From NCBI GenBank assembly GCA_043798215.1, contig JAZDOX010000038.1, positions 5,659-69,658 of the forward strand: a stretch of DNA of 64,000 bases. The letters run 5' to 3'. A model generated the notes under the pieces. It did no database searches, was not told where the DNA came from, and worked only from the letters and a program-made list of their open reading frames with translations. The stretch is from Candidatus Omnitrophota bacterium. GTDB taxonomy: Bacteria > Omnitrophota > Gorgyraeia > Pluralincolimonadales > Pluralincolimonadaceae. Below, in pieces: positions 3,001-59,374 of this stretch. The position numbers were made by a program, and so were the translations under genes. Positions within the stretch are counted from its first letter, which is position 1. Every line of letters begins with the position of its first letter.

Positions 3001-6000
3001 AAAACCATCAAAGTCCCCTGCCACCTTAACTTCGCCAAGGATAGCGGGCAAGACATCTTTATCTTCATCGAAAAGATATCCGAATTTAGAAGCTTTTATG
3101 GCGGCGATCGCCAAATTCATAACCGAATCCGACATAAATGTGTCGAAAGCGATTACCAGGCTGCCGTTTGGAACCAAGCTGTCGTAGACGGCATTGAGCT
3201 CCTTAACCGCGCAATCCATATTATAGAAAAGAGTCGGATCGACTATAACCGCTATGTCTACGGTATTGGGCCTATCGGCAAAGTAAGCGGCGTTTATGTT
3301 CTGTTTGAGGGTGTCAACCATCTCGAAGCTAATATCCTCAAGCCCAAACAAATCCCTGTTTTCTTTTGCCTCCACCAAAAATTCAAGATTAACATCTATT
3401 CCTTTTATCGCAACCGTCTGGCCTGTGGCTTCTTGAAGGCCTCTTTGAAGCGCTAAAGCGTATGAGCAAGAACCGCAATTAACAGCCACAGCGTTAAGTC
3501 CCTCTTTGGCGGAATAATCTATCCTTGCGCTTCTGAGGGCATAATTAATATTCTCGGCAAATTTAGTGTCCTTCGCATATTGGTCTATTAACATTTGGGC
3601 CTGTTCTTTTATATCGCCTGTCTGCGCCAACACGAATTCTGCGTAATAATTTTCATATCCGGGGCTGCTTAAGAGATTGTATTTGGTCAGGCCTGCGGCA
3701 AGGCTGTCATCCAAAATCATTAACTGCTTTGCAACCTCATCTTTTAAGGCGCGGTTATCGGTTATCCAGTTGGGCAGATAAGAGACAACGATTGGGATTG
3801 CTTCATTGCCGCTCGCAATGCCGCCGGCGGCGTCATTTTGCCAGATGTGATAATAATACTGCTCATCAAAAGACAAATCGGGCTGCGCAATAAATCTTTT
3901 CTCGACTATACCTTCCGAGGCAATTAAAAGATGTGAACGATTTAATTCCGCGGCTCTGTCGTAATAACTAATGTTAGGCGTTAGATCTTTTAATCTCTCT
4001 TTAATCTCGCCAAGATTCGTTGAGGATAGGAAATTGCTGTTGTAAAATAGTGCGGCTTCTTTTACTTTTATACCTAATCTGTCTATTTCAGTATCGCAGA
4101 TATGCTTTATAGAATTGTGACCGTCCATATCATTGACATGGATCAGGACGTAAACATTCTTCCCATCTCTTTCACCCCTAATGATAACCCCGGAGCAGCT
4201 GGATAACTCTAAGATAACCGCAGCCTCGCCTTCCGGTATCTCGGCAACCATGAAATGATCAGTAGGAACATTTATCCTTCCACATATGGGCTCTTCGAAA
4301 CTGATCGTACGTTCAGTAAAGCGCGGGGTTGGCATATTGCTTTCCGATATCTCATAAGTTGTATATTCACTCTTTGTAACCTCTAATAAACCCGACAAAG
4401 TCCAACGTTCATAACTTGTTACCGCCTTTCTTAATTGCGCCTTAAAATCGGTGGTTGTTGCCGGCGAGACTGCGGCCAGCATATCTGAAACATCTACAGT
4501 TATATTTACTATATTATAATAAACGGTTTCGGTCGCGAAATCATCAACCGCCGCGCAAACACACCATCGGTATCCTAATTCGCTCTTATCCAGCGCTCCT
4601 TCTATAGAGAAATCTCCAAATTGCACTAACACTATATCATCGGGCGAATATTTCTCGTAAATCTCATTTAAGCTCTCGCCGTAATAATAACCGGTTACAA
4701 CATCCTTGCCGTCGATGGTCTTTATTACCCCGTAGGCGAAAGACAAAGGTATCTCCAACATAATTTCATTGGCGGCGCAAAGAGCGATATTGAACAAGTC
4801 CGTCTCGGCCTTCTTTGTTGTATATAACTGGCCATTCTGGTGGGTTATTACGCTGGATAAGCTGTCTGCGCTTAAGGGGTTGACGCCTTTAGGTTCTTCA
4901 AAAGACTTAAATGAGTCGCTGGAAGTTTCTCCGATGGCTATTGATTCATCCGACACATACGACCTTACTATCTCAACAGCGGTTGCGGTGGTAGAAACTA
5001 TGCTGTAGGATTCTACGCCGGCAGAAACCAAAGCGGATTCGCCCTTGGCCAACGTAATAGTCGGCTTGCCTGTTGCCCTTAATTCAACGGTTCCGCTTAA
5101 GACAGTGATTATCTGGAACTTCTCGTTCGTCTGCTGGTTAGAGAGAGTTGACATACCGGCCATATCTATCTTATCGACCTTAAAGAACTCGCAATCAACC
5201 AAAGTCTTTATCTCCGGCTGCGAAGTAACTTGAGGCGTCCTTATGAAGTCGTCTTTGGTCGTCTTTCTGAAATCAAGGACGTCCATACATTGGCTTATAT
5301 GAAGCTGTCTCTTTGGAAGCCTGTTCCAGTCCCATGCCCTGTAAGTGATACCGCTTGACTGTTGGATTTCGGCTATTCTGCATCCAGAGCCTATGGCGTG
5401 AATAGTAGTGGAAGGAATATAATACATCTCTCCTTTGGTAACCACGAATTTATTTAGATATTTATCGGCTATATCGATATTGCCGGCGTCTAAGTCTTTT
5501 CTAAATTCATCTCTTCTGTCTATTCCAAGCTCAGGATTATACACCTCTTCCTTAAAACCAAGATACAGAACGCTTCCAGGATCGGCGTCCAGAACATACC
5601 AACATTCGGTTTTGCCCAAATCGCCTTCCTTCTTGGCGTATTCATCATCTGGATGGACCTGAACAGAGAGGTTCTCGCTTGCATCCAAGAACTTAACGAG
5701 GATTGGATTCTCGCCATCGGTTATGTCGTTGATATCTTCGCCCATAATATCTTCACCTGCTATCTTTAACAGGGCGGGTATGGATATCGTAACGCCGCTT
5801 GTGGGTAAAACAACCTGGCTTGGGCTGTCCTTATGTCCGGACACTTCCCAGGACTCGCCTATCTTCTTATTGTCATAGCCGGAGAGGCCTTTCAGCGCGG
5901 CTATGAAATCTCCGCCCCAGGGCTTTTCGACCAAGTTATCCGTCTTCGGCTTTATTATCTGGCTCTTTAATGTGTTTATATCGGTAACAGCGTTATTGTA

Positions 6001-9000
6001 TTGGGTAATATACTCTTGTTTTTTGGCCGCTATCTGGGCAAGAGTAGCTGTCTGCATATTCGTCGCTATCTGGCCAAAGGAATACTGGTTGCCATATTCG
6101 GTCAAAACAACGTCCCAGTCTTTCTTTCCGTCGCGGGCTATATTGGTCTTCATACGGCATCTGCCGTTTACCGGATCATAGACATCGGTTAGAGCCTCGC
6201 CTTGCTTGAGGCTCATATAACCGGCCTCGACCACGTTATAGGCTATAGCATTCTGGGCGTCTAAACGAATTATCTTGGAGCCTATGACAATACAGTTCTC
6301 GACGTTCAATTCTTCGGCTGTTACCCCTATTAAGATACTGTTTACTATCTTGCCGCGTTTTATGTTGCAATCTCTCATAACAGAACCTGAAATAGTAACT
6401 TCCTGAGTTAGGGTGTTTGTCCCATCAACCCATCTATCGTCGGCAACTCCATAGAATTCTCTCATTGCCTTTCCTTCGGCGGAATCTTCCAAAAGCTTCA
6501 TATTGTTCTGATAATAGAGGTTTACCTGGCCGTAGTCCCACCAAAAGCTTCCATTTCCGACGTCTTTGTAGCCGAAGAGCCTCTTATCGGGAGACTGGGT
6601 CTCCAGATAATCTTTTACTTCTTTTGCCTTGCCCGATACACCCGAAGAAGTCCATTTTTGGTAGAGATCGGGATCTGTGTCGAGCTTTTCTTTCTTAGCA
6701 GTAAGTTCGGGATTAAAAACATCGAGAAGTTTATCAAGCGCCACTTTATCCCACGAGAAAGAACCCAAACTCTTTCCAGCCACTCTCTTGTCTTCCTCAT
6801 TTGGCGCAACCAACTCTACAGCCTGGTCATAAGGCGTCTTTTCTCTCAATTGAGCAACATCGTTGTTAGCGCCCAGAATAATCAGGCCGTAATCCTTAAA
6901 ACTCTCATCTAATTCAGCCTCTACTGCCAAAATTTCCACGTGGTGTTCCCCGTCGAAGCTAACATCGGCATTAGGTATAAAGACTTGATCTCCCCAGAAG
7001 ACGCAAAGCCTTCCATCACGGGTATCGGCAAATAGGCCGGTCTGATATATTACTTCCTCAAGAATGGTTACCGGTTCCTTTACCCCGCCAACATCAACCA
7101 ACTGGGGAGCTTTTATCGCCGGCTTGTTGTTGCCCTCGGCGCCCGGAAGAGGAGCCATCCTTGTCCCTTTACCTGCGGTGTGATACATTGCTATCTTCTT
7201 ACCCGCGGCTAACTCGGCCCCCAAATCTATCGAAGAAGCCATAGCCTTTAATTCAGCGTTGTTCCAGGCGTTTAGGCTACCCAATAGATTGCCCGCCCCG
7301 CCTGATGCCCAATCCGCTTCAGAGACCGAAAGAATGACCGCGCCGCTCTTGGTTACCTGACTGCGAGTAGCCTCAAGGCGGGCCTGCCAGTAATTGGCCT
7401 GGTCTTCTGTTGGAGAAACAACAATGATGTAATCGAAACCTTTATTTTGCTCTACAGCTTCCTTCATCTTATTGATAGAACGTTTGTGCTCGACTATCGA
7501 GGAAGTATCCTTTGAAAGCTCACATGTTTCCGCCATAAACGAAGCAAGAATCTTTTTCTTTAGCTTATCCGCCATATCGAATTTGCTACTGGCAGTGTCT
7601 AAATAAAATGCGGGATAGCCTGCGGTGGCAAGAATATTTATGATGAAATCCTCGATATTTAGCTTCAAGGTATTATCAATCCCGCCTTCTATCCTTCCCG
7701 TTGAAGCCAAACTCTGCAATGTCAAAGCCATAGATTCAAGGTAAAAAACGGGGGTATCCTGCAATCCTTCAAAATTATAGGTTGAAAGCAATTCCGTTCC
7801 ACCGGAGACGCTTTGCTTAATGGCCGCCGCAAGGACATTTATTTCGTTTACCAGCGCGGCTTTCATAAGCGTGTCGGAAACGATATCCAGAAAATCTTTA
7901 ACATCGTAGAGAAACAGAGGGTCGGTGGTTTCTTTAGCCGCCACAGCTTTAAGCGTTATCGCCATATTTTTAATGCGGGCGATCATCTTTATTCTCTTAT
8001 CTGCCTTAACAAGATAATCCGGTTCTTCTCCCGCCGCGCCGATCAATATTTCAGGCATAAGCACGAGAAAATCCGTCATCGTCAAATTCTCGCTAAGATA
8101 TAGAATCCCGTTTAAACGGTAATACGATCCGTTATTGGATAGAACCTTAACAAAGCCATCTTCGACAATCTCTACCCCTTCGTTTGTTCCTGTTGCCGCC
8201 GTCATCAGCGCAGCCACAAGCTTTGAGTTATCGTCGATATCTTTTAATTGCAAATCGAATATGTTATTAGCCGAAGCCATAACAACAAATTGCTCATAGC
8301 CGCTCATAGTCTCGGAAATACTCTTATCAAGTGCGCTGTCGTCGGCGGAGGTATGAATGCCGGCTCCGGTGTTACAGGGTTCAATGACGCCTTTCTCGAC
8401 AATATTTCCCTGTAGATGTCCTTCATATCCGGGTATGGTAAGCTCGGCGCCTTCGTGAGCGATAAGAGCTTTTATCTCATCTATCTTATTTTGGGCAATC
8501 AATCTGTCCATAAAATACTTCGAAAGAACTACTATCTTTTCCCCTGTGCCGCTGTCAACATAGGAATAGGCAACGCAATATTTATCCCTGTTTTCCACAT
8601 ATATCGCGGGGGCCTTATTCCAAGTCTCCATAACCTCAATACGAGAACCCTGGAGTGTGTTGGCAGTATTTCTGAATGTCGCAGCTTTTGTAACATCGCT
8701 TATCAAATCGAGATCATCGGCTATCTTATTTAAATCTGCGATTGAAGCGCCGGCTATATCGCCGTAGAATGAACTTGCGCTGGTTCCATTTTGCCAAACG
8801 GTCTTTATCTTTCCTGCCTGCCTTGCCAGCGCTATCTCCACTTCAACTGTTTCGTTTGCGACATTCTCGCCTTTCTGGCCGCCCTGGGTTAAGTCAACGT
8901 TTTCCTTAGACCACTCTTTTGCCTCATCCAAAGGTTTGGCGTCCGTTGCGGATTTATCGTCAATGCCTTTGTTGTAATTCCAGTATAAAGCTCCATCGCC

Positions 9001-12000
9001 ACCCGATGTCTTGGTTGAATTCAAGTTATCTGTCAGCGATTTAGAGGTGTTGGCCGTCTGAAATTCCTCGAGCATCCAGGCTTTACCCGCTGGAACATTG
9101 GATACAAGACCGCTTAAATTTCCCATCCAGTCGTAATAATGCAGGGCGCAGTAATCAAGTTTAGACTGCGCGCCGCTTAAAACGCTTATGTGTTTCGCCG
9201 ATACGCCGGCGGTAATCAGAATATTTTTATTTACGGTTTTTATGACATCGGCGCAGGCATTTATAAATTCGCTTATGTCCGAGCGGCTTATAGGCGAAGA
9301 CGCTTTATAGGCGTCGTTGACAAATTCCCACCCGCCGCCTTCCACAGACTTAATAAGCCATTCCGGCTCGTTAATTATGTCTATCGTCATAAGATTCGGA
9401 TGATTTCCGAAGTCGCTCATAAACGGTTTTAGGAAATTATCGAAGAATTCTTGCCTCTTTTCCACATCGGTAAAGATGGCCGAATAGCCGCCCAACTGCT
9501 CTCCGTTTTCTATTTTAGCCTTATTGGCTATGTGAAAATCAACAAGCGTAAATTCTATTCTTATTCCGAACTCCGCAGCGATATCAAGAAGAACTCTAAT
9601 ATCTGTCTTGAATTGTGTGTTGTATCCGATTATATTTCCGGCGGCGTCGAATAGACTAATACCGTTATCCAATAATCCCATACGCACAAGGCTTATATTG
9701 TGGTCTTTCATATCCTTGAATTGCGCGCGCACAATATCGCTATGTTTGGATACGCCATTTCCTGCCCCGCCAAACCAGTCTGTGGTTCCGAAATTTTGTC
9801 CATAGGAAGAGTTTCCTTGAGAGCCTCTGTAATTTGTGCCCACAAAGAACCTCTGCTCGCCTTCCACGTAGAAGTTGCCGTCTTTGACTTCAACCGGCGC
9901 AAGGCGGCCGGCGGTTTGAAATTTTTCCGCCATTTTTTGGACTTCTTCTGTCTTCTTCTCAAGGTCAACCTTTTCATTATGGGCAGCAACGATATTTTCC
10001 ATCTCAGGGGCGACAACGCCTTCTATCTTTTCCGCCGGCGTTGTAACTTCAGCTATTGAGGGCGCGGGTTCTTTGGCAATATCGGCCTTTCTTCCGGCAA
10101 GTTTAGTTCTTGCAAATTCCGCGAAGGTCCCGTCGGTTGTATTCTCGAATCCGGCTAAATTAATAACCAATACATCCGCCTGCATCCACACCTTCTGGCT
10201 GTTTTCGTCGAAAACAATCCTGAACTTAACCCCGGAGTTCGTAAGATCGGTGTGATATTTGGAATAGACCCTGCCGCCGCTCACAACCTTTCCATCCCCT
10301 ATCACTTCATCCAAAACGTCTATCACTGCTGTAGCGCTGAAAATATCGGTTACGCTACGATCTACCTCGACACTAAAACCCTTGCCTTCGAATTGGCTCG
10401 TAAAATTCCTTATCTTCTCTGAATCGGTCAATCTGAGTATTTCATCTTCTATAGCATTCTTTATGGAATCTATGCTTTGCTCAAGGACGTCTTCGTTTAT
10501 AACATCCTCTAAGTTATCTTCCAGATACTTAAGCATCGCCTGTTTCTTCTCCTCAAGCTCGGCGTCGTCTTTGGCTCCCGTGTCAAGATAGACCTTGAGC
10601 TCCTCAACGTAAGCATTCCAGAGAACTTCTACTACGGCAATCTTATCCTCTAATTCTTTTACTCTGGCATCAACGTCTATAGTCGCGTAATTTATGCCTT
10701 TCTCCGAATCATAACCAAGCGTCTTTTGCTGTTCGAGCAATGTTCTCAACGCAGACTTCCCGCGGCATATAATCTCAAGCCACATAGCGCGTTCGCCGTC
10801 AATGTTGTATTTCTCGGCGCGCAAATCCCAGTAATCGGCTTCGGTTTCGTATTTGGCTTTAACTAACTCTATCGCGTTTTTAATCATAACGGTTATTTCG
10901 TCAACGCAAGCCGCGAGAGATTTAATAGACGGATTATTTGGATTCTTGAGCTGATAATTGGCCGCGGAATTCCACGAATTCGTAAACCCTCCGGCGGCGC
11001 CGGAATTCTCAAATGACGAAAATGTTGCCGTATCTGGATGCTCCACAATAAACGGCATATCTTTAGGCGCGTTTGTTAACGGATTTTCGCCGGTCCGCGA
11101 TTTAACGATGATGAAATTGATGTTATTTATGCCGCCGGTATATTTCAATTCGCCGGCCAAACCCGCCTTTTGCGAAGACAGGCTGACACCTGCCAATTTT
11201 CCGGTTAGGCCTCTGTTAACAATAGGTTGAACGCATTTATCCAGAAAAGATCTAACCTGCTCTAATATAAACGCGTTTGACTGGCTGCTTCCTCCTCCTT
11301 CATCCTTCGCTATAATCTGATCAACGTTGTCAATAAGGACAACCCCCATAAAGGCATCATGATTTATATAATTCTCGACAAAACTATTCCAGAAATTATT
11401 AAAGAAAGCGTCCCCGCTTCCTCCCCTGACTATCTCTGAAAATCCGGCAGCGCCTAAACTATTCTCGTCCAGCAGCGTAAACATAACCTTAATATTGTGT
11501 TTTTTGGCCAAGTCGAGAAGATTCCTCACGTCGGACCTGAAAGTCTCAAGCCAATTAATCACTTTTATCTCGCCGTTTTCGTAACGACCGAACATTGCGC
11601 TTCCATCGCCTAATAAATTCATCGAGATCGCGCGGACGCCATTTTGAGCCATTCTTCCAAGAGCCGCGTCAACTCTTGTAAGATTGGCGGTTATGCCGTT
11701 TGCGGCATCTCCAAAATTCGTTTGGGCCGAACCGAATGCTTGGCCGGTTGTTGCGTCAATAAAGGTGTTTGAACTGGTTCCGCGGACGTTCCATATCTGG
11801 TCATCAAGATATATGTCCGCGCCTTTTACAGTTACGACGCCTGTGCTGGAAACCTTTTGCGCTTCTAACTGATGTAACCGCTGTTTCAATTCATTTGCCG
11901 TAGCGGAAATTTTCGCTTCCAACTCGGCGGCTAAATTAGCCGCCGCTGTCTTGGCATTCTCTTTCAGGAATTCATTGGCGTCTTCAAGTTCGTAGATGTA

Positions 12001-15000
12001 GTTCTTGAAAATACCCTCATAAAGAGGGCCGAGGCCGGAAACAGGCTTAGTAGAGATATCCGCATTGGCACAGAGATTCTTTATATTTTCCGGCATCGCG
12101 TCTAAATCAGCGGCTCTCTTCTGATTTTCTATCTCGGCAATAAGTTCGTTCGAGCGCTGTAAATAGCGTTCTTCGGAGATTTCATTTCGCTCAAAACTGA
12201 AATAAACCTCGTTTAATTGCAATCTCGCATTGGCCATTCTTATTGCGGCCTCATTCGCCCTTTGGACCCTCTCCGCGGCATCATAGATAGCGTTTATGCG
12301 GGTATATTTTTCGTTATTCAAGGAGTTTAATTCCGCCCAGAGAATTCTTGTTGTTTCATCTTCAGTTCTATAAATTCTGTCGCCGGTAGAAGTCAATATA
12401 TCCTTTAACTCCTCCTCTTCCTGCTCTAATTGCGTCTTGGTCGTCTCGATTTTAGCTTCTGCTTCCAGGAACCGGCTGTCTATATCGGTAATTGCCGCTT
12501 TTGTCCCGGATATCATCGAGAGTATCGAGTCGGCTACTATCTCATTGGCCTTAGACTCGGGAAAATTGGCGAAGGTTTTAGCCGATATTTCACCAAGATC
12601 AAGCAAGGAACCTGCCATAACGTTGCGATAATCCTGCCAAGCGGCGGCATTCTCTTCTTCTTTCAGCTCAACTTCCATTGCCGCTTTTTCATAATCTCTG
12701 CCTGTTTGCGCTATCTTTTCGTCAAGGCGCGCCAACTCTGCTTTGTCGATCGTTAATTGCGCCTCCGTATCGGAAAGGATCTTCTGCTGCTCGGCCGCGG
12801 TTAAAGCGGCGCTATCCAAACATTGCTGATAATAGGCCATAACCTCCTCAGTCTGGACAAGCTGCCCCTGCGCGCGGCTGCAATAACGGCCGGATTGATA
12901 AAAATTTTCGGACGCTATTAATAATTGCAGCTTAAGATACGACAACTGTTTTAAGAGGCCGTCGGGATAACGCCGTATCTTGTCGCCAAGTATGGCCGGA
13001 ACGGGAGAATCCCTGCGAGGCGTAACCGTTCTCCCATTGCCTAATAATTCCTGCAACGCCTTAACTTTCATTAGATATATTTGGAATTCTCCGCCAAAAT
13101 CCTGTTCTCTATATTTTTCACGCAAAGTGACAGGATCGAGCTCGGCCAATTTAACATCTATAAAATCAACCGCTTCGTCTATCTGTTGTTTTATCTCCTC
13201 AAGCCAAACCGCGTTCTTCTTCTGGTTCTTATTGGCTATCTCTATATCTATCTTACAAGACTCTGCAACCCCTGCGATATAGGTCATCTCATTCTGTATT
13301 CTTGCTTTTAACGCGGCGGTGTCGCCTACAGCCCAGCCTATCAGATATTCCCTGAAATCCTCAAGCCGCTTAATTCTTTCTTCAACCTTAATCTTTTCCT
13401 TTCCCGCTTCAATGGCTTCTTCGGCGGCCTTCTCTTTGGCAACAATCGCCTGCCCGAGAGCCTCATCGCTCTCTCTGACATAGTTCTCCTTGACTACCAG
13501 CGATTGAGTCCGCTTCATAGTGTCTTCCTTCGTAGGCGCGAAAAGATTATTGAAATAATTAAGGAACTCGGTCTTCCAGCCGATTATTGTGGCTATAGTT
13601 CCGATAATAATGGCCCACGCAACAGGGCCGAGCATCCCTTTCTCGAACCATTTCTTGAAATAGTCGCCCACCTCGGAGAAGGCTATATCGGTGCCTGGTA
13701 TTCTCGTATAACCAACTTTGACCGTAAGGCCTGTATGGGCGGTCTTGTTCCACCAGGAACCTCTTCCTGTCGTTAACTCCGCTATAGCATGCATAACAGC
13801 CGGTATGTGGAAAGTTAAATATAGAGGAGTCCCGAGATTCGCGGTAAAGAGGCGCCATTTCATACCGCGCACAGCCTCGCTCTCATATTGAGTGTTAATT
13901 ACTAACCTTACAGTGTCCCATACCACCGCTCCAAGCAGGCCTGCTGATAGCGTTACTAAAGGCCCTGCGGATAAGAGGGCTGCGGCTGCGGCAGGCAAAG
14001 CTGTAAGGATAGCAAAAGACTTTATCTTTGATGAAGCGGCTGAGCCTGACTCTAACTGGCCGATATATTGCTCAGTCCTTCTTATTTCATTCTGGCAGGA
14101 TAGCCTAAGACGTTCGCCGTCGGCGCGCGCCTTCGCCAAACTCGCTTGCCCCTCTTCTAATCTTCCTTGGGCTATCAATTCATAAGCGTTGTCAAATTGG
14201 AATCTCTTCGGGTTCTTCTTATCGTAGAATTGTTTTATAATTCTGTCGTAGTAAACGTCTCTAGCCACTTGTGAATCTGGGAGGTCTTGTCCAAACTCTC
14301 TTATCTCATCGAGAGCGGCACTCATATCCCTCATAGATTTATCAAAAAGGAACTCATCGTTGGCTCCGGGAGACAAGATAGATATTTCGGTAAGTAGTGT
14401 CTGTATGAGTATCGGGGCAAGGACTAAGCTTAACCCGGCTATAGTCGGATTAAGGCCTAACATCTTAAACCAGCTGAATAGATACTCATAGCCCTGGACT
14501 ATACCGAATAAGCTTAAACCCTGTTTTATCGCAAATCCCAGACCATACAGCATAGTCACAATAGTGGTTGCCATCTGGAATATAGAAGACGATCCGCCGC
14601 CGCCCAAGATAAGCATATAATTGAATATACCGGTTATCCCGACTGTCTTATAGGCTTCCATAATATTTCCGCCGCGGGTATAGACAAGAAGTGTCTGCAG
14701 ATAACCCTTTGTCCAGCGGGATCTTTGGCCGGCCATACGCCCGCCGACATATTCATCTATCGCCTCTTCGCCGGTTACAGTGTTTGCTACCGTAGTTCTG
14801 TATCCTTGGAAGAATATCTGCATGCCAAGGTTGCAGTCTTCGGTTACATTATATCCGTCCCATCCGCCTAATTTCCTCAATGTCTTCACATAAAAGAAGT
14901 TGGAGGTTCCGCCTAACGGAACAAGCGTTCTCTTAGTTATAAAACCAGGCAAGACTAACTTAAACCAGCTCTCGTAATCTCCAACAAAACCTCTGGCGTT

Positions 15001-18000
15001 CCAGGTCCTGGGCCAGTTAAACCAATCGAGCATACCCTGTATGGCGGCAGGAACGTTCCTTCTGGCATAATCGGCGGCTGTCATACGCTTCTTAAATTCT
15101 TCTTTTATGCCATCGGAAGAAGAATTATAATTGGAGTCATTCATAATATCCCGGAGTATATCCATTCCATCACAAGCATCCATAAGAAGATAAAGGTCGT
15201 ATCCGGTAACCTTATTGCCTCCAACAGCGCCGGTTTGATCATTGAGATGCTCCAGTAATTGCTTGGCCCAGCTCTTCTGGTTAGCCTTTAAGAAAACTGG
15301 ATCCACGCGGGAGAGATCTATGCTGCCATCGGAGGCAGTCATCATATCGCACAATACCTCCAAGGACGGGGCTATCTCTTCGGCCTTTTGTTTATAATCA
15401 AACGAGATGCCGAATCTTATGCAGTCGGCATAAAGATCCGGAGCATCAACCTTCAGCCTATCAGCCGAGACGCTATCCGGATCAGCCATAGCTCTATCAG
15501 CCAAATCTTTCATAACCGATTCTATCTTTACATAAGTAAATATCATCTTCTTTACCTGAGGAGGCTCTGGCGCGTCTTCGGCATCCCAGATAACCGCATA
15601 CTCGCCTTTGGTAAAGTGCATAGCGTAGGTTGTGGACCACGGCTTGGTCTGGGCCTGGATCGGCTCGCCAACTAAATTGGGGGCGCGTTTGGGAGTAGGC
15701 ATAATCTGGATCCATTCGGGTATCTGGCCTTTCTCCTGTAAATCGTAGAATATGGATACCGTTTTGGTATCCCACTCCTCGCCGCATATTAATATCTGAA
15801 GTTTGGGATAGTCTACCTTCTTCATATTTTTCATTAAAAGGCCTGCAACATCCTCTTCTCCAACCGCAGGAAGGTACACGGTTACAACAGGCAGGACATC
15901 CCAAGTCCTGACCTCCTGCCTTACTACGTCTTGCCTTACAGAGTCAAGGGATGAAATTATCTCATCGGTATCCGCGTCTGCGCTGAATAACTTCTTTAGG
16001 ATTTCAGTAGAGAAAATGTTCGAATATATCTTTGATACAATTTCTTTCTTTGTTGTTGCGCCTCCCAATCTACTAAGCGCGTCTTTATCGGCCTGCGGGG
16101 CGTATTGGATAAACCTTGAACAAAACTCTGTGTCGTTCATATTATCGAGTATCTCTTCGGCCACCTTCATCGAGAAACGGTCTATTATCTCATCCTTGGT
16201 TAACGTGCCGAATATGGCATCCAATAAAGCGTCTTTATCCTGCGAATTAAGCGTGGCCTGGACATCTGCCCTGCTAAGGATTCTCCTTTCGGGATGCGTC
16301 CCGCGCGGGTCGCGCTCATTGTCATTACGCGTAATCATCTCGACCATCTCGGAAAATGAGCGTTTATTTACTATGTCAAAAGTTAGACTGTTTAATTCTG
16401 CGGGCTCAGGGCTTACTACTTGAGATAAACCAAGGGAATCGGCGGCAGTTTTATTCTTGGCTAAGATGCCCTTAACACACATCCATACCTTATGCGCCAT
16501 AATAATAGTCGACGTGCCTATCATAGCCAGCGTCGAATACTTCAAGAGCGTCATTAAGCTTTCAGAGGGGCCGAATTGCGAAGCGCCCCATGCCACAGCC
16601 GCTGTGATAAGCGCGCCGACAGTTCCGGCAAAGACCTTCTGTCCTGTGGTAAAGGTGGTAAATGAGGTGTGCTCCTTGCCCATATTCTCGCCCATCTTGG
16701 TCATATCTATAAAAGCGGTTTTTCGCGTATTGAGGACACTGGTTAATTCCTGTCTCGCGGTGTCAAGGGTAGTGTCCGCGCCATCGGCAGATAAAGTTTT
16801 TACGGCTTTGGCCGCATCGTTATACATCGCCTGATAAAGTCCGGCGGTAAGGCGGTGGAGCTCGACGAACTTTAACTCCGACTTGGTGTCGGCTCTATAA
16901 ACCATATCGCTGGTAACCGAATCTATCTTTACCTTCACGCCTCCGGGCTGTTTTAATTCTTCGGCTTCGGCTATAGCGGCCTCCGTCTGTGATAATAAAC
17001 TGTTTGTATATACAACCCCGAACCAGCGGTCAAGGGTTTCATCCTCTACATTCTGCTTCTGGGCCTTCTCGGCGTCGTTTAGCCTTCTCATAAGCGGCAT
17101 ATCGCTATAAGCAAGCTCTGGCATAACCATAGTGGCGCTTAAGGAATCGTGCAAACTGTTTAATTCCTGTTTTAAGTTATCGAGGGCATCTTTCTGTTTC
17201 TTGGCGCCGACGTTGAACGTCGGAAGATTGGGATTGTTGATATTGGTGTATAATTCTTGGACGCGGGCTATGATACCGTCAAAGACGGAATTATAATCCG
17301 CTCTATTATTACTTAAATTAAACCTTGAGGTATTAAGCGCAGACTTGGCAGTTTCCAGTTCACTAAGCAAGCCCGAGAGAGCGCTGTTGACTCCGGCGGG
17401 ATCGCAGATGTTCTGAGTCTCTTTTATCTGAACAAGAGCGGCCTTCTGGGCGTTATCAAGATCTCTCCACTTTTGGTCTATTCTCTGTATCGTGGCATCT
17501 AAAGTAGTTTCTGGTATATAATTTTTACTTATAGCTTCTTCCAGAGCAAGGCCGCGATACAAAGCGTCTCTTAACGGCGTAAGCCCGGATATTACCTTAT
17601 CCATAAGCTTTGCCTGGCTTGGCCTGCCTTTTAGCTCATCTACGGTCTTCTTCCACCAGCTCTTGGGGTTTAATATCTTTACCGCATCCGCCCTCATCCA
17701 CTTAATCATCTTGTCAACGAACCCGCCTTTGTGGGTAAGATCGGCGTCATATTTCTTGATGAACCTTCCGGCGGCCTTTAAGGCTTCGTATGGATCAGAG
17801 ACATTAACTACAGGCGCTTGTTTTCCTGCGCCCATCTGGGCTTCATAATGCTCTAACTCTATAGGATTATTGGCTTGTTTTATGAGTTCCAGATTATCGA
17901 GTATGGTTTCGATCTCCTCTCTTTCCGCCACAATACCGTTTGCGGAAAGATCGATAAGGATTTTATCTATCGCTCCTTCGCGTGTTCCGCCTGACTCTGA

Positions 18001-21000
18001 CATAACCTGGTCGTACATCTCGACAATCTCATCTATGGCTTTCCTTAGCTGGTCGGCGTTTTCGGCTTCAGCTTCTTCCTCCATAGTAGCCTCTATCTCG
18101 GCTATCTCTTCGGCCTCTTGTTCACTAACCTCTTCCTCGGCTTCTTCTTGCGAGAGTAAAGGCTCTGCCAAAGCGGTTTCGATTGCGGCGCGTCTTGCGG
18201 CAATCCTGCCTATCAATCCGCCTTGCGGCTGAAGGCTTGTGTCTAAATAGTCATAGAGCTTTCCCTGATTTATAAGTCCATTATTAAAAATCCTATCGAT
18301 TAAATCTTCCGCCTCTTTGAGAAGATTCGAAGCCATAGCCAGATTGCCGGACATCTCGGCTTCTTCAACATATCTTAAGGCCAATTCGTAACAGATGAGA
18401 TCTGTTGCCCCGTCAGCATCCAAAGGAAGAACATCATCGTGCAATCCGGATAATTGAGCTTCCGCGTAACAGCCTTCCTTCAAAGTATCCAAGGAATCAT
18501 AATAATCGCTCCAAATGAATTCCTTGCTTACGCGCCTGTCGGCGGCTTCGGTCAAATCGATCTGGATGTATAAGCTATTGTCTGTGCCGGTTGCTTGGTC
18601 ATAATTCGCGCTAAGCCGCACTCTGTTTGCGACGTGCCTTCCATGCTCAACCGAAAGAACATCTTCTATATCAGCCTCTAATCCTATTTTATTTGCGGCG
18701 AAGGCAAATAACATAGAGAGGCCTAAGCAAGAACCTTCCCGTAGAGCTACAACTTCTCCCGGAAGCGAGATATCTTTGTTATATTTGAAGTTCTCCACGA
18801 TAAAATCGGCAAGCCCTGAAGCTATCTCGGTCTTCTCTTTGATGAGTTCTTCTTCGCTCATCTCGCCTTTGGCGGCTTTGGTTTTAGCGGATTCTAATCT
18901 AGCTTTTGATACGGTTATTAAATTTACTCCTCTGTCGTAAAAAGCCTTTGAGGATATATTATTAACTATTTTATTTACAATAGCAACCTCAGTATCCTTA
19001 TTGAAAAACCTTCCGACTATGAAATCTATCGCGCCAAAGGCAGGGGCTATTTCATTTTTGCCCATAGCGGATGTAAGCTCTGAAATAAGCGAGGACAAAT
19101 TAGACAGCGAAGAGTAAGAGGGCAACTCGCCCTCAAGTTCACTGGCATAGGAATAGATGTATTTCTGCGTCTCTATCTCAATTATCTTATTGTATACGGC
19201 TTTGCGGTCGGCAACTGAACCGACTTTGGCATTGCAATATAGCTTGCTAAATTCACTTATCTTTTCTCTTGCCTGCATAAAATTCGTGTAATTACCTGAA
19301 GCGCCTGCAACCGCCCAATCCGCCTGCATACTATCCAACAGGTCATTATACGCGGCCAAAAGGATCTCTTTATCGCTCATAGCCTCATTAAAGATATCTT
19401 CGAAGAGCTTTCCTTGATTAGACGGTCCGAGAACATATGCGCCTTTATCGTAAGCATCCTTAATTGCTTTCAAAAACGAGATCTTGCTAAAATCAACAAA
19501 TACTATACGGTTATTCGTAAGGAGGCTTATTATTTCGGTTAGTCTCTCGTTAAGCAGTTTACGGTCAGAAACCGCCAATTGGCTAAATTTATTCAACGCA
19601 TCTTGCGCATATTTCTGATCATCCAGATCCGCGGAATCTTTATATTCGATATAAGTATTAAGCCGTATATCCGGTATAGCGACCCTATTGACAATATCGC
19701 TGACATCTATCGCGTCTATAACCCTTGTCCTGTGAGCTATGCTGGCGGAGTCAAAAGCCATCGCGAAATTATTGCCACCGGTAATATAAGGGCCTTTCTT
19801 CGCCTCAACGAAATCTTTTATAGTTCTATCATCGGAAGACAAAGGCATAGTCAGCTTTTGAATCCCAATCAGCTCCATAAGCCGCGGAGCGTTCTCCTGA
19901 AGAGCGCATATCGTGAACTTGCTCCTCATCAATTTTGCCTTGTATTCCAAAACAAACGCCAAATCGTGAAGAAAATCGTTTGTGGCCTTGTCCATAGCAT
20001 TGCCGTTTATGGAATATGTCCCTTCCTCCACCTCTTTTATAGCCTCGACCATTCTCTCCATTAAGCGAACGGCATTCATCTCCTCCATAGCCGCGCGAGC
20101 ATCATCGGCCCCTTTCATATGTGTTATCTCATGACGGACTATCTCTGTTAAAACATCAAAAAAACTTAAGGAGCTGTCTATCTGCAGTTTCTCGACAAAT
20201 TTCGAAAATATATCTCCGGACCTTTCGGTTACGTATCTTGCGCGCGCGGGGCCGTCGGCGTCTCCATTATTCAATTCGCTTCTTGTCTTTAACTCGAGTT
20301 GAACGCCGGATATCTCTTCCAGTATAAGTTTTAGCTGGCCATAATACATAGTGTTTCCGAAAGGATGGTCTATCAAGGCAACGGCCGGGGAGTTATATTG
20401 CCTTAACGCTTCGATATCTTGGCGTAAGCAGCATAACCTATTCTGATTATTGACATAGGCTTTAAAAATCTGATATTGTTCGTCATCGAGTAAATCTCCC
20501 ATCTGCTCTATGTCGGCGTTTAATTTTTCGCCGTTGTTTACGATTACAAACTTCTGCGAAGTATAAGCAGTTAATCTCCGAACCAATTCCATAATACATA
20601 GTTTCATATTCTCAACCATATTAGCATCGGTAATATTTTTCCCCGCGGTTATTTCTTCCGCGCTCGAATATCTGTATATTTGCATCCTGAATCCGCATCT
20701 TAAATCATAATTGGTAAGAGCGAATTTTACTACGTTTAGCGCGGCGTCTATTTGTTCTTTCGTAGATAGACCTTCGGCTCTTATCGTTACTTCCATAGGA
20801 CATTCGGAAGCAAACGGCGCTAAGACGCCCCTTATATTGTAACTGTCAAACATATATCCTTCTAAATCGCCGAATTCGACGCAATAGGGGCCTTGTTTGC
20901 CCGCTACCTCCAGATACAACTTTATTCCGGTAGCCTCCTCTATCTTCTCTCCTATTTCAATGAGCATCTCACAAATGCTAATGTGCAAAGCATAAGCGGT

Positions 21001-24000
21001 TTTGAAAGTCAACTCTTTGGTTAGCGGGCTTGCCGGAATGTCTAAAACGGCATACTCTAAAATTCTTGCGGCTTCTTTTTCCTGAGCCTCAAATGGAAGA
21101 CCCATCTGCTGAAGATATAGGTCCTCGTCCACTTCCGGAATTAAACTAAATTGAACATCCGCTTTAGTTGCGCCGAGATTGCGGTTGTAATAGTCAAGCG
21201 TTTCGTTATAAACTTCCGTTTCTCTAAGATTATTTGCCCTGAATCCCTCTAAGGCGCTCTCGACAAACCGGCGGCCGTCTTCAACGCCTAAAACGCCGAG
21301 GGCTACGTCTAAAAACTCTTCGGTTGAGATACCGACATCGTCGCTGAATTGAGAAAATTGATTACGTATACGCTCTATGAGGTCCTGCGGCGTTACGTTG
21401 GACAGGCTGTCCGCCTTAAAATCAAAGTAAACAGGTCCTTCGTCCGAGTTAATGAAAACCATATTGGCGGGATTAAGGTCAAGAGGCATATTTGCCGTCA
21501 TAGTCGTCCAATCCGCCTTCAATTTCCAAAGTTCAACCCATTTCTTTATTGCCTGCCGCAAGCATTCATTCCTTTCATTAGCGCTTACATTCTCATCCAA
21601 AAGTATATTTTCGAGATTCCAAGCGTTGTCTACATACTGGGCAACCCTCATTGAAAGCAGGCCTTCGCCATCTAAAGAATAGACACCAACCTGCATTGGA
21701 ACAAATTTGCCTTTCGTATCTCTTAAATTTATATCATTTTGATAATCAAACTTGATTTGGAGACTTCCTGCATCGGCCAAATCAAAAATAACTTCGCGCT
21801 GCGCGCCGTCAGGCATCAATATCTTGGCCATATAGATATGGGAATCTTTTTGATCGTTTAATCTCGCGATATCGACATTTATTGTCTCGGCAACACGCTC
21901 TTGAGTCGTTAATTTACTTTGAAGACTAAGAGCCTCGACCCTTACATCGGCGCTTGTATCGCTCATCGCCTCAATTAAAAGCCCGCTTCCCTGCGAAGAA
22001 TCATAGATGCGCTTCTTCTGCTCATCCGATAACGCGAAATTCTGATACATATAGGCGAGATATTGCAACGCGGCCTTTCGAGATTCAACAACCGCGGCCT
22101 CGTCCATTTTAGCTCTTAGGTTGTTGAGCCATTCTATTATTGACAGCGTTATAGATGCCCCGCCTGCAGATTGATGTAAGATAGTCTTTGAGACAGGGTC
22201 TATGCTCACTTTGTAAATTTCATATCCATTCTCATAGACATATTCATAGATATAGCTATAGAAGATCTGCGTCTGGCCGTTATGGGTAACTTCTTCCGTT
22301 CCATCATATAATAAAACGATGTCTTCGCCGGTTTCTACATCCTTAATGGTTACGTCGCTATTTGGCAAAGCAAGTATGGGTTGAATTTTAGCGGCGTTTA
22401 ATTCAATAAGGCGATTATTTACCATTTCGTTTAGAATATACTGGTTATTATCGCTGCCATCGGCTCTTATAAGCCCCTCGTTTATCAGGCGGCGCAGGCC
22501 TGCAGCTACATCCTGCTTTGACAGAATGCCCTTATCTAATGCGGTAGCCCAAATATTCAACTTGCCGTTATCTAAACCGCGGACATTCTGGAGGACGGAT
22601 TCATTATCGCTTTCTTCAAACTCCATTAATAAGCCAATACCGATAGTATCTACTTCTTTCCTCGCATTGGCCAAATTGGATAACTCAAACATAGTATCGC
22701 TAATAAGATTTGTTTTATCTATCGCCTCTTGTATGCTCTGTATATCGAGAGCCTGTTCGGCGGCAGGAACCTTGTCGGTATCGCAATAGGTATAGCTTAC
22801 GCTATGGTCGGTCGGCGACATCTCATTTATATATCTTCTTGTAATCTCTCCGACTTGGCCGTCCACTCCCCAAATCAAGGGGTCAAACCGGCTTATGATA
22901 TCCTGATGCCCAGTATAAGAATCTTCGCCAACAACCATAGCCGCGAATTCGTGGAATAGATACCTGTGGAGTATCGAGTTTAAATCGCTTCTCGCAAAAA
23001 CATTCCTGTCTATGCTGATTACGAGCTTTCCATCGGAAGTTACACCGGTAAAGGCTATCAAGTAGTCTTTATTTCCCCAAACGCGCGGCTCGTGCGTAAC
23101 AAGTTCTATCTTTGCGGGATCATTCAATATCTCTTCTATCTTGGCAAGAATACCGTTTAAATCAGCGGCTAAACCAGGGTTATTTTCGCCAAGGAGTAAC
23201 CTCTCTGTAGCGGTTAAAACGGCTGAGCGGACATCGCGAAGTTTCTCGAACACAAGTTGTTTCCTGCTTTCCGCCATTTGAGCAACTAAACCTTCCGTCT
23301 TTAACTGATCTAATGTTAAAGCATTTACCTTCTCTTTAAAGGTGCCAAAAGCTTTGTTTTTGCCCACCGCGGCGGCAAACTCGTTTTGAGGGGTGGCGGG
23401 ATTATCGAAAATCATACTCTCTTCAACCTTTAAATTAGCAAAATGAAGAGCGAATTGTTTTAGATTGTAAGCGGCTAAGGTGTAAATAGAGGAAATTCCT
23501 TCGTAAGCAGATGTTAAATTCTTAAGAAAATCTATTGCTTCCAGCGCTTCTTCTTGCGTCGAATAGTTTACAGGGCTCATATTGGCAACAACATACTCTA
23601 TCGTCTTCTCATCGGCGTAAAGCAGGTGATGTTTGAGTATCTTTAAGTCATCGGCTGAAATACCGGTTGAAGCTACCATAGAGTCTATGTCATCGCTTGC
23701 ATCGAAGACATAATTGGGATTGTCTTCAAATTCCGCAAGCAAGACGCGGGCGGCCGCGCTTAAATTGCCGAAGTTCATTATCCTTGAGCCGACAGCCTTA
23801 AGGAAATGTTTCTGGGTTTGGGCTAATATATCCGGGGTAAGACGCGAAGCGTATACTTTCTCATATGAAGGCGTCGCCTTCAGCCCCTTACAAAGCTCCT
23901 CATTGAAATCCTCTTCGTCATAAACCTGCCATACCTTCTGGCCGTTGGCGTCGAAAGAACCATTCCACCATCGAATATTATCTTTATCGGCGATCCTTCC

Positions 24001-27000
24001 TAATATCGTAATCCATCCTTCAACGGCTGTTGATTGCGTAACGGAAATCTCAACGTCTTTACCGTCTCTTAGGGCTATCTTGGAAAGCAATGTAACAATT
24101 TCGGTTCCTACGCCGAGGCGCGCATTATTATTTCCTATCGGAAATTTTTCCGACGGCTTTAAGGTCATATTCAAGATGGCGATCTCTTCGGCGCGCAGCG
24201 CAACCCAGACTTCGTCTGGATTGGGATTGTCATAATCTCCGTCGTAATGAATTGTAAAACTCCCGCTCGTCTGGTATTCCACCTCTATCATTTTGCCGTA
24301 TTCGCCGTTCCCATTGGTCTGTTTATGGTTAACAAGAACAACCTTCTCTCCTGTCTTCGCCGGCAAGTCAACAACAGCCGGAACCACAGGACGGTTATAA
24401 ACTCCCTGCCCATTGACAATAAAAGACATACCTGCGGCTGTGGTATCGAACTTGAATGACGCTGTGGGGTCTTCGACTTTATTGGAATCAATCGCCTCGG
24501 GCAATGTCCCGATTGTATAATCACAGTCATAGAATTTGTTCCAAACACCCTTGTGCGAAAGCGGGCCAAGATTAGCTACCGCTATCATCATATCCAATGA
24601 ACTTTTCACGTCTGCCTTTAGAGACGCGCTGTTTTCCATAGGAATGCTTGTTGTATAAGGATTCGCGACGAGGTTTCTCGCATCTATGACCCTTATCTTC
24701 CCGCTGCTATCCATAGTCAGGTTATCCAACAATGTCTCACCAGCGGTCGGATTCCGAACCATAAGACCTTTTCCGGCCAAGTCATTCGTAAACGAGACCG
24801 CCGCTTTAAGGATGCCTGCTACAGCGGTTTCTTTCGCCTCGGGAGTATTATAGGCGGGGTTGTTTTTGATATTCTGGATAGCGGTTTCCAAGGTTATGGC
24901 GCCAGTTCTTATAAGAGTATTTGTTTCGCCGGAGGTCTTTATCTCAAAGGAAACTACCAGATCTTTGGCATAACCTTTTACACTATTCAAACAAGCGGCC
25001 TCAGTAGTTGTGATATTTGTCGTTGTTATCTTTCCATCGGAGACGGCCTTGTCGAAAGCCTTCTGGTTCCAGTTATCGAATGTGGTTATAAGGGCGGGTA
25101 GTTCCGCGCTCGATATGCCTAAATTAGCCAATAAATCCGCCTTATCGGAGAGTTTTCCCGCCGTATAGGCATTTGCAAGTTCAATAATCATACTATCTCT
25201 CTTATTGATCACGAAATTAAATAACCCGCGGTCGAGTTCCGATAATCCGCCTGCTATGGAGGTTTGTTTCTCGGAGAGGTCTTCAGAGGCAGAAGTAACT
25301 GAAATATCCTTTAACTGTGTCAATGCCGATATGAGAGAATCGGACAGAAAGATTTGTCCGCCTTTGGCGGCGTTTAATACCTTGACAACAGGAGGGCCGG
25401 TCTCTTGATTATCGTTAATTACAGCCTCAAGGCGCGTCTGCATACCTTGTTCATTTATATGGACTGCCGCCTGAGCAGAGGCCCCGCCTTGCTCTTTTGG
25501 CAGGACAATATCCGTAAAGGTCTTGCAAATGCTTACCGCGTCTTCAAAAGTTTTTGCCGTCACAAAAGTCAAACTTGTGTCTTTCGCGACATTCACGCCG
25601 GTAATAACATTTTCGCCTGAAGTTTGTATCTTGCTCAACATAGCGTTGGCTTCATTCAATATCTGTGTTGCTTTAATCTCAACGGCCGTTGCGGCTGAGG
25701 CCTCTTCTGCAGTAATATCCGGCATAGCCTTAATGTAAGCCATACCGCTTATTATTTCAGTCATTATATTCTTTATGTTCTCAGCGGTACTCTTTACCAT
25801 AACCGCCAATTGCGCTTCGCCGTCTTGAACAATGCTGCTGATAATTGTGGTCCCAGCCGAGCGCGAATGCAATAGAAAATGGGCCATCGCATTAGATAGC
25901 ACGTTATTGACATTTTTATTAACTATGCCGTTTATCGTGTCAACCCCGTGTAATTCCATCCAGCCCTTTATCGCCTCTGTTCCCACGCCTTGCAGCGTCT
26001 CTGAAATCCTGCTGGTCGCTCCTTGCGAGTCGTTTACCGCTTCCACATATTCCGCGTGCAATCTTATCGCGTTTTTAAGTTCGCCAGGATCGCTTAGATC
26101 AAAACCTTCCTCTCCTTTGGCTATAAGTTCGTCAAATAACGCGGCTTCTTCAAGTTTGCCTTGTTTGGCCAATATACTGCGGAAGACGTTTTCGTTATTA
26201 ACGGTATATCTTTGATCGAGCATATTCTCCAAATCCGCTTTTAACGTCTCTTCGGTAACATAGTATATGCGGGTCGAGTCAAATTCATCGGCGCGGGGAG
26301 CGCGGCCGGCGCCCTGCACAATTTGGGTCCTGTAGGTATCGGAATTGACCCAAAGATCATAACTGCCCATAGGGCTGAAGCCTGTAATACCCGCCCTGTT
26401 GACAAGCAGAATCGCGCCGAAAGGATTGCCGTCGTTATCATACTTGCTGCCCTCGGTTAATAACGCGGCTTTGGCGGCAAGTTCGCTTAATTCCACATCC
26501 GAAGTCAAGTTTTTTACCTGAACTATTTTTTCTAAATCAGACACCTCTATTCCTTTTCCATAAAGCCTGCCTGAAAGCGAAGTTATCTCGCGCGTAAACG
26601 CATCGATTAATTTTTCTTTAACAAGGTCCAGCATATCAGGATCCAGCGATGGAAAGATGGCGCCGCCCGAATAATACAATTTACTGCCGTCGCTTTGCGT
26701 TATTGGTTTTATTTGTCCGCGGCGCGCAAACCATGAGGATAAAAGATCATCGGCAACAGCCTGCGCTTTTTCATCCGCGCCGCCTCTTAACACCACGAGG
26801 ACATTGTTTATATGCTGTCCATTTTCGGCCAAGGCCGTTAACTTTCCTGATATATTCATACTATCCGTAAAGATGTTTTCGCCATCTATCATATCCAAAC
26901 TTAACGTAATAGGGCCGCTTATATACACAACGTCCAATCCTAACGTTGCTTTTATCATCAACGGCACAACCCCTGTGGGATTTCCCTCGGCGTCCACGCC

Positions 27001-54678: not shown

Positions 54679-54685
54679 CAATTAG

Positions 54686-56746: not shown

Positions 56747-56790
56747 ATTGGGCAGCTACAATATGTTGATCTATTTAGTCGAGAAAAAGG
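56681..56790. repeat. Copy 1 of a roughly 110-bp structured repeat element (MITE- or ncRNA-like). It overlaps the 3' end of cinA.
   Basis: About 85% identical to 59078..59187. Shared features are GTCATT(C/G)CCCGACTTG(C/G)AGACTG...CACAATGTAGTTGCTCGATTTATCGAGC (a GCTCGAtttATCGAGC hairpin) ... a G-C-C-C-(A/G)-A-T hairpin ... GCA(G/A)CTACAATAT. Confidence 0.6.
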
Positions 56791-56871
56791 GTTACGACCC
56801 AGTCTGCGAGCCGGACAATGACGATATAAGATTAAATCTCAAATACATAGAAGAAAGTGTTTTTACAAAAA

Positions 56872-58438: not shown

Positions 58439-58508
58439 CTTGGTATGAACCTGTTGCGAAATATCATTTTTTGCAATTTCCCGCCTTTATTATCCTAAAC
58501 ACAACAAT

Positions 58509-58606
58509 GTCATTCTGTGGCTTGACCACAGAATCCAGACATAAAAATAACTTTTAGCGTGACTGGATTCCCGCTAACAGATTGCGGGAATGACGTCTTG
58601 CAACTT
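58509..58606. repeat. REP-like palindromic units: A1 at 58509..58540 and A2 at 58561..58606. The consensus has CTGGATT and AATGAC flanks around a variable stem-loop.
   Basis: A1 is GTCATTCTGTGG-CTTGAC-CACAGAATCCAGAC. A2 is GACTGGATTCCCGC-TAACAGATT-GCGGGAATGACGTCTTGCAACTT. A2 is the reverse complement of 59208..59251. Confidence 0.5.
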
Positions 58607-58655
58607 AAAACAATTGAACTCATACAACTACTCGTGGTTCCGCGATACATTATTT

Positions 58656-59033: not shown

Positions 59034-59077
59034 TACCGCCCTCCTTGGTATTATCGTAACTCTTCGCCCATAAAATT

Positions 59078-59187: not shown

Positions 59188-59207
59188 TGCAAGCGGTTTC
59201 ATAAGCC

Positions 59208-59305: not shown

Positions 59306-59374
59306 GGGTAATGACTTATGAAACCGCTGGAGAATAACATTTAAAACTACTCGATCGTAACGCTCATTTATTAA

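Follow-up and report, generated by a model that had tools for sequence, protein, structure and literature searches.

A putative cellulose/hyaluronan-synthase-type GT2 module within a giant bacterial protein

A 64,000-nt stretch of DNA (contig JAZDOX010000038.1, positions 5,659 to 69,658; the window in what follows) carries one giant open reading frame (ORF), within which, at window positions 13555..16941 on the minus strand (amino acids, aa, 12,581-13,709), lies a module with the motifs, membrane helices and predicted fold of a membrane-embedded glycosyltransferase of family GT2. The best explanation, and one we consider reasonably probable, is that it is an intact membrane-integrated GT2 enzyme with a cellulose/hyaluronan-synthase fold that acts as a synthase. 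Alignment shows it to match, collinearly and at full length, a widespread family of stand-alone synthases; judged by its conserved residues, this copy is complete and looks active. An earlier note on this DNA had interpreted the module as a processive synthase, in an arrangement with no described precedent. Its identity and architecture hold, as those of the cellulose/hyaluronan-synthase type, but its processivity is putative and the claim of no precedent is too strong.

Architecture of the module

The giant ORF (54681..1, minus strand; ATG at 54678) comprises 18,227 codons in a single frame, with no stop found by six-frame scan and translation between 54681 and base 1 and with its C-terminus past the end of the window. 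The module is therefore internal to a polypeptide of more than 18,000 aa, as had been claimed. G+C content is even along the ORF (0.41-0.47) and is the same in the module as in its flanking sequence (0.46-0.47); recent insertion of the module as foreign DNA was rejected for this reason. Its limits are set by homology to eight related proteins (P0003-P0008, P0015, P0022), whose BLASTP matches to the giant protein fall only at 13555-16941. The interval originally proposed, 13561-16680, fits these limits, with homology beginning slightly upstream, at ~16941. In all 18,227 aa there are nine strongly hydrophobic 19-residue segments (Kyte-Doolittle), four of which are inside the module.

The Pfam profile PF13632 (Glyco_trans_2_3) matches the module at 39.8 bits, against a gathering score of 27 (E 5.8e-10); this is the significant GT2 match that the earlier note had looked to as a check. 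The three sequences on which the note had relied were located as YAVIWDAEDAPEP at aa 13,028 (window 15562-15600), NVTEDCNLGM at aa 13,278 (14821-14850), and GQRSRWTKGY at aa 13,318 (14701-14730), and hydropathy agrees with its order of two transmembrane (TM) helices, GT2 domain, and later TM helices. The order of the motifs (D12,971, DAED 13,033-36, TED 13,280-82, QRSRW 13,319-23) is the correct one for enzymes of the BcsA/HAS/CHS/NodC/PgaC type. In a 67-sequence family alignment the giant protein retains all 21 of 21 invariant columns, including D12,971, K13,013 (of TKP), D13,033 and D13,036 (DAED), E13,281 and D13,282 (TED), and Q13,319, R13,322 and W13,323 (QRSRW).

Read from its N-terminal end (all coordinates on the minus strand), the module begins with a hairpin of two helices, both seen only at a lower hydropathy threshold. 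TM1 (16573..16647; aa 12,679-12,703) was assigned from hydropathy and AlphaFold helix 14-35, with the profile aligning the region to the two BcsA helices that precede the glycosyltransferase (GT) domain; TM2 (16471..16554; aa 12,710-12,737) is followed by a K-rich flank that points to the cytoplasm. A helical linker of ~190 aa (15904..16470; alignment A2, low-confidence model helices) leads to the catalytic domain, and is this long only in the giant protein and P0003, P0004 and P0005. The N-terminal half of the GT-A domain (15550..15903), modeled with a predicted local distance difference test score (pLDDT) above 90, contains D12,971 (15769-15771), TKP (15640-15648) and the DxD-type motif DAED (15574-15585), with alignment columns D304, K346, D366 and D369 invariant. 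It is separated from the C-terminal half by a helical insertion of ~165 aa between DxD and TED (15052..15549; aa 13,045-13,210; alignment A2), at the site occupied in plant CesA by the class-specific region. The C-terminal half (14740..15051) carries the catalytic-base motif TED (14836-14844; E614 and D615 invariant) and the PF13632 match, and is 44% identical to the stand-alone relative P0001. QRSRW (14713-14727; Q652, R655 and W656 invariant), aligned to QRGRW of BcsA, is in an interface helix (14677..14739).

Two membrane helices follow at 14374..14643 (TM3, 14518-14643; TM4, 14374-14448). These are the counterparts of BcsA TM5 and TM6, which line the BcsA channel, as judged from profiles A1 and A5, which align through BcsA residues 395-457, from hydropathy, and from AlphaFold helices 672-721 and 745-769. 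After a conserved GP.D there is a soluble coiled-coil insertion of ~110 aa with K/R-rich flanks (14047..14373; alignment A2, model helices 786-878), and then an inserted hydrophobic hairpin (13894..14043; aa 13,547-13,596) that P0006 and P0015 do not have. A weakly hydrophobic helix in the position of interface helix 3 (13771-13878) and the terminal motif WWNKTAH (13735-13755) together take up 13735..13878. Beyond them is an extra membrane helix (13573..13647; aa 13,679-13,703; alignment A2), which is the strongest hydropathy peak of the whole protein. The hydrophobic helices after the catalytic domain are thus at aa 13,347-13,388, 13,412-13,436, 13,547-13,596 and 13,679-13,703, and the core of the module has only four membrane helices, plus the inserted ones. 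Relative to P0001, the additions are the linker, the DxD-TED insertion, the coiled coil with its hydrophobic hairpin, and the post-motif helix.

Relatives and solved synthases

An AlphaFold2 model of the excised module, another check that had been suggested, was built with the 67-sequence alignment and has a predicted TM-score (pTM) of 0.71 and a mean pLDDT of 68.9. The GT-A core is above 90 and most membrane helices are between 70 and 90; confidence is poor for the linker and for parts of the insertions. In a Foldseek search of the PDB with this model, the top 22 matches are all hyaluronan synthases (HAS), BcsA, or the Pyrobaculum membrane mannosyltransferase PcManGT. BcsA outscores PcManGT, with ~80 more residues aligned, and in the model the membrane part contributes to the match, its membrane and interface helices lying against the GT domain in the manner of the solved synthases. 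At the sequence level, the family profile matches BcsA at 3e-21 over residues 58-457, which include the two pre-GT helices, the GT domain, the QxxRW helix and TM5-TM6, and pairs invariant residues with DDG, HAKAGN, DAD, TED and QRGRW of BcsA. With a profile built from the C-terminal half, the alignment extends past BcsA TM5 and into TM6. Sequence alignments to both BcsA and HAS end before the terminal W.KT.H motif; we infer that interface helix 3 has its equivalent in the third, weak helix and that W.KT.H takes the position of the BcsA gating loop (FxVTxK), from collinearity and the shared pattern aromatic-x-x-T-x-basic.

The module is not simply a BcsA, however. Compared with BcsA (PDB 4P00, 4HG6, 5EJ1; Escherichia coli 9FMV), it is only ~15% identical in sequence, has no PilZ domain and no equivalents of TM1-2, contains three large insertions, and has one helix rather than two after the gating-loop position; BcsA has BcsB as a partner, whereas the window encodes no BcsB and the module is an internal part of a chain exceeding 18,000 aa. 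Class I hyaluronan synthases (Chlorella virus HAS, 7SP7 and 8SNC; Xenopus HAS1, 8SMM) are 10-13% identical to it and end in a WGTR-type motif where the giant module has W.KT.H. For PcManGT, with its “minimal cellulose-synthase-like fold” (PDB 6YV7), the profile match covers part of the GT domain only; the giant protein's family instead has invariant QxxRW and terminal motifs and is nearer BcsA by sequence. Membrane GT2 synthases joined to large accessory domains in one chain are familiar from the AcsAB cellulose synthase and the myosin-motor chitin synthases. Those fusions are ~1,500-2,500 aa long with the synthase at one end, while in the giant protein the synthase is internal and the chain about ten times longer.

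Across 1.84 billion representative proteins, an exhaustive HMMER search found 2,940 relatives of the module at E<=1e-3, 383 of them at E<=1e-30, the best at 4e-90. Most are stand-alone proteins of 450-1,300 aa. A frequent order is a c-di-GMP-binding MshEN domain (present in P0001, P0002 and the protein at locus L070), a two-helix hairpin, the GT-A domain, two clear TM helices, a weaker third helix, and a terminal [FYW]W.KT.H motif, whose W, K, T and H are invariant in alignment A5 and ~28 residues after which the stand-alone proteins end. Motif spacing in these is regular: 93 aa (median) from DxD to TED, 37 aa from TED to QxxRW, and ~136 aa from QxxRW to the terminal motif. The giant module is collinear with this COG1215-type family from hairpin to terminal motif, 38-49% identical over the catalytic core, and has all family-invariant residues in common with it; on these sequence grounds, the stand-alone MshEN-GT2 family is its direct parent family. 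It differs in having no MshEN (the 1,000-aa segments that cover residues upstream of the hairpin gave no match to it), in its three insertions, with spacings of 247 aa from DxD to TED and 324 aa from QxxRW to the terminal motif, and in continuing for more than 4,500 aa (4,585 aa in the window) after that motif.

Database labels for the family are varied. NCBIfam gives weak matches only, to CelA, PgaC, MftF, EpsU and NfrB; membership in NfrB, PgaC, NodC or CelA was rejected, with scores far under the cut-offs. One fragment is labeled XagB in a JGI record, a link that rests on this single database label; XagB-dependent polysaccharide contributes to Xanthomonas biofilm (PMC3609779). At locus L070 (6096-10777), a stand-alone MshEN-GT2 relative is two genes downstream of a BcsB-family gene, in an operon, which suggests a cellulose-synthase-like secretion system regulated via MshEN instead of PilZ. 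A relative at L010 is fused to further GT2 and GT4 domains, with a nucleotidyltransferase gene following it. A word-index protein search with the full module returned just two stand-alone relatives; the same search returned none with alignment A2 and only fragments of 108-217 aa with core alignment A4. A metagenome scan found ordinary stand-alone enzymes of 395-1,665 aa only, and no more giant-type copies.

In a neighbor-joining tree of the catalytic core (a quick distance tree) with 148 sequences, the giant protein and its eight best matches form a clade of exactly nine. Identity among the nine is 25-47% across the motif-bearing module, and similarity of the giant protein to the other eight is confined to that module. 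The eight proteins are 1,026-4,677 aa long, several of them cut by contig ends; P0004 (2,076 aa) and P0006 (1,192 aa) appear complete. The insertions are common to these eight best matches, and the hallmark of this subfamily of large proteins is the DxD-TED insertion, giving a spacing of 148-286 aa as against the median of 93 aa in ordinary relatives. The post-motif membrane helix is likewise found in the large proteins, but not in those that end at the terminal motif. Three clade members are named as Candidatus Omnitrophota proteins at NCBI, P0003 (MFA6141912.1) as “MAG: glycosyltransferase”; P0003, P0007 and a member of the P0015 cluster are labeled [quoted passage not shown] at JGI; and “uncultured Planctomycetia bacterium” is the title of two related contigs from the genome collection. 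From these names, the source of the window is most likely a member of the Omnitrophota or a close relative in the Planctomycetes-Verrucomicrobia-Chlamydiae (PVC) group.

What the window encodes as one ORF is divided, in two relatives, between a pair of adjacent large ORFs (110-14143 and 14412-24143 at L083, the second with PGM/PMM domains; 3-6881 and 6995-11626 at L002), pointing to fusion or fission of giant genes. The gene next to the GT2 gene of P0003, the closest relative, contains PGM/PMM domains; as called it encodes 3,454 aa and overruns the fetched locus. It also includes a stretch homologous to aa 15,718-15,935 of the giant protein, which is found as well in the ORF after the GT2 ORF at L002. 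P0003 itself has an NAGPA (phosphodiester glycosidase) domain downstream of the GT2 module (aa 3645-3731) that was not seen in the giant protein.

Other parts of the giant chain

The giant protein was scanned with Pfam and NCBIfam in overlapping 1,000-aa tiles, with a reporting limit of E<=0.01 for Pfam absences. Few domains were recognized, and most of the chain has no recognizable function. At the N-terminus, hydropathy identifies a signal-anchor-like segment ending in AWAGG (54442..54519; aa 55-80). Its pattern, hydrophobic-F..[QE]...WA.GG, is common to P0004, P0007 and P0015 and, on this sequence evidence, may be a lineage-specific targeting or processing signal. A C39-family peptidase-like domain follows (52918..53193; aa 497-588; 23.2 bits against a cut-off of 22). 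It would be non-cytoplasmic should the N-terminal segment prove to be a signal anchor, and may be relevant to self-processing. The extracellular-type modules that the earlier note had placed in the same chain are represented by a group of carbohydrate-directed Pfam matches at 48169..50571: Laminin_G_3 (50128..50571; aa 1,371-1,518; E 3e-16), a mannanase-type galactose-binding domain resembling a carbohydrate-binding module (CBM) (49255..49575; aa 1,703-1,809; Mann_GBD_bact, E 3e-5), and a GH42/GH5-like region (48169..49110; aa 1,858-2,171; Glyco_hydro_42, 22.7 bits against a cut-off of 21; Cellulase, E 5e-4). There is also a weak RHS repeat match, and a weak methyltransferase-like one (E 2e-3) at aa 17,057-17,177.

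Between the GT2 module and the end of the window, the clearest domain is a class I mannose-6-phosphate isomerase, ManA (4975..5922; aa 16,254-16,569), matched by TIGR00218 at 138.3 bits against a cut-off of 116.2 (E 3.5e-40) and by the Pfam families PMI_typeI_cat and MPI_cupin_dom. Directly upstream of it is a region tentatively resembling sugar-1-phosphate nucleotidylyltransferases (6256..7194; aa ~15,830-16,142), with the motif AGKGTRMAPL, which is conserved in the genes 3' of the GT2 genes at L083 and L002. Matches of this region to NCBIfam GlgC (E 3.9e-7, far under cut-off) and Pfam NTP_transferase (E 0.0036, under cut-off) are low. A single-sequence AlphaFold model of it gave no support (pLDDT 35), a PDB search with the sequence found only a marginal FAS1-domain protein (E 0.039), and a three-sequence profile found nothing there, for which reason the assignment stays tentative.

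P0003, P0004, P0007, P0015 and the first ORF at L002 (orfA) have a conserved C-terminal end (...Y..Y[RE]..M..L...A). A hidden Markov model of it has no match in the visible part of the giant protein, whose true C-terminus is therefore probably beyond the window. The genes beside the 5' end of the giant gene (55424-63437) are cinA, an RNA 2',3'-cyclic phosphodiesterase gene, pgpA, pgsA, and two hybrid histidine kinase genes; no type II/IV secretion-like genes were found in these 9 kb, the other flank being outside the window.

Giant proteins of Omnitrophota, the “Archaeovorins,” have been described (West-Roberts et al., 2023; Seymour et al., 2023; preprint 10.64898/2026.06.07.730766). Reported features include few annotated domains, Laminin_G_3, many predicted membrane helices, C39 and S8 peptidases, glycosyl hydrolases, methyltransferases and sugar-phosphate enzymes; the glycosyltransferases named are of the starch-synthase type, GT5 and GT1; most have a SecA_DEAD-like domain, with a NUDIX hydrolase also reported; and many of the genes have type II/IV secretion-like genes beside them. 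Attachment and cell-wall degradation have been put forward as functions. The protein described here is like these in its length, its few domains, its membrane helices, and its C39, Laminin_G_3, glycoside hydrolase, glycosyltransferase, methyltransferase-like and sugar-phosphate enzyme domains, and the named close relatives of its module are from Omnitrophota metagenome-assembled genomes (MAGs). It differs in its membrane GT2 synthase, in the housekeeping and kinase genes at its 5' flank, and in the lack of any Pfam match to SecA_DEAD or NUDIX in the visible 18,227 aa. With such proteins already published as carrying glycosyltransferases and membrane helices, and with databases labeling relatives of the module as cellulose-synthase-like, “no described precedent” was an overstatement. 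Supplementary tables aside, the papers on giant Omnitrophota proteins do not mention a GT2 or cellulose-synthase-type membrane module; a literature search combining Omnitrophota, cellulose synthase and giant protein found nothing, and a survey of huge proteins is likewise silent. The module thus gives a known protein class a new specific feature, and a known enzyme superfamily a new subfamily, rather than being a new kind of system.

Possible activity, alternatives and significance

If the module is a synthase, its catalytic domain would face the cytoplasm and take a nucleoside diphosphate (NDP)-sugar. It would act as an inverting enzyme that extends a beta-linked glycan at the non-reducing end, with the growing chain held by the tryptophan of QRSRW. 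The glycan would pass outward between the membrane helices of the module, which might do this as an oligomer or with the help of the inserted helices, and the module would also pin the giant polypeptide to the cytoplasmic membrane. A cytoplasmic GT domain fits both the K/R flanks of the helices and the relatives in which MshEN, a cytoplasmic domain, precedes the same hairpin. ManA and the nucleotidyltransferase-like domain, together with PGM/PMM in the neighboring gene of a relative, might provide activated hexose locally, for example a mannose nucleotide, by the route fructose-6-P to mannose-6-P to mannose-1-P to NDP-mannose; these domain assignments hint at local donor supply by enzymes of the same chain and of a neighbor gene. 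The product could serve as a coat, tether or matrix.

Several points weigh against a synthase. No NCBIfam equivalog reaches its cut-off for the family, which is therefore uncharacterized, with no member of established activity, product or donor. Neither MshEN nor PilZ nor BcsB-like parts were found in the visible giant protein, and the nucleotidyltransferase assignment is weak. Topology is a further difficulty. With an N-terminus resembling a Sec signal or anchor, followed by lectin and hydrolase modules, an odd number of spans would be needed before the hairpin at aa 12,679, ahead of which there are only three or four weak candidates. On the other side, the single strong helix after the terminal motif places ManA and the nucleotidyltransferase-like domain outside the cell, so that helix counting puts either the GT domain or ManA on the wrong side of the membrane; P0006 shows the same conflict in miniature. 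A similarly implausible localization of sugar-phosphate enzymes in giant proteins was noted by West-Roberts et al., who suspected overlooked helices.

The module could instead be a non-processive membrane GT2 enzyme that forms no channel and moves a single sugar, such as the mannose of GDP-mannose, onto a protein, glycolipid or lipid carrier, as in PcManGT, DPMS/GtrB-type enzymes or glycolipid synthases. We consider this rather unlikely: the family keeps QxxRW, TED and the terminal W.KT.H without exception, BcsA both scores higher and aligns over ~80 more residues, profile homology to BcsA continues through TM5-TM6, and one relative is encoded beside a BcsB-family gene. Nor does a low helix count speak for single transfer, as streptococcal-type hyaluronan synthases also function with few helices. 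A catalytically dead relic, kept as membrane anchor or scaffold only, might be imagined for a GT domain and membrane region broken up by large insertions, in a protein most of which has no recognizable function, but it seems highly improbable when all 21 of 21 family-invariant residues are kept, among them every nucleotide-binding and catalytic residue, when nine clade members just 25-47% identical have the same motifs, and when the insertions are at surface positions of a core with pLDDT above 90.

It is also conceivable, though improbable, that the module functions outside an 18,000-aa chain, either because the ORF is an artefact of assembly or fusion or because cleavage, for example by the protein's own C39-like peptidase (aa 497-588), frees a synthase of ordinary size. 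Complete relatives of 1,192 and 2,076 aa contain the same module, two relatives have two adjacent ORFs in place of the window's one, and cleavage was raised as a possibility by West-Roberts et al. Against an artefact, however, a stop-free 54.7 kb at 44% G+C is beyond chance, composition is even across the module, and such giant ORFs are well documented, with proteomic detection in a related organism; against processing, no cleavage sites were identified.

A more elaborate version of the synthase reading is a glycan factory in one chain, in which cytoplasmic modules (ManA, the nucleotidyltransferase-like domain and, in relatives, PGM/PMM) would make the activated hexose, the GT2 module would polymerize and export it, and the N-terminal lectin, CBM and hydrolase modules would hold, trim or deliver the polymer outside. 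We regard this as unlikely in its entirety; if true, the product would be the coat or tether employed by Omnitrophota on their hosts, and the giant proteins would be biosynthetic machines, not only degradative or adhesive ones.

For the glycosyltransferase field, the module adds a synthase subfamily with a DxD-TED insertion and extra helices, and an instance of domain fusion taken to an extreme. Few known proteins are as long as the giant ones of Omnitrophota and related bacteria, and these are almost entirely unexplained. An active site that must face the cytoplasm would be a fixed topological landmark against which their disputed membrane-topology predictions can be checked, and as an enzyme that can be excised and assayed the module offers a handle on the role of at least one class of them. 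Its presence suggests that these proteins also build glycans, and do not just degrade them.

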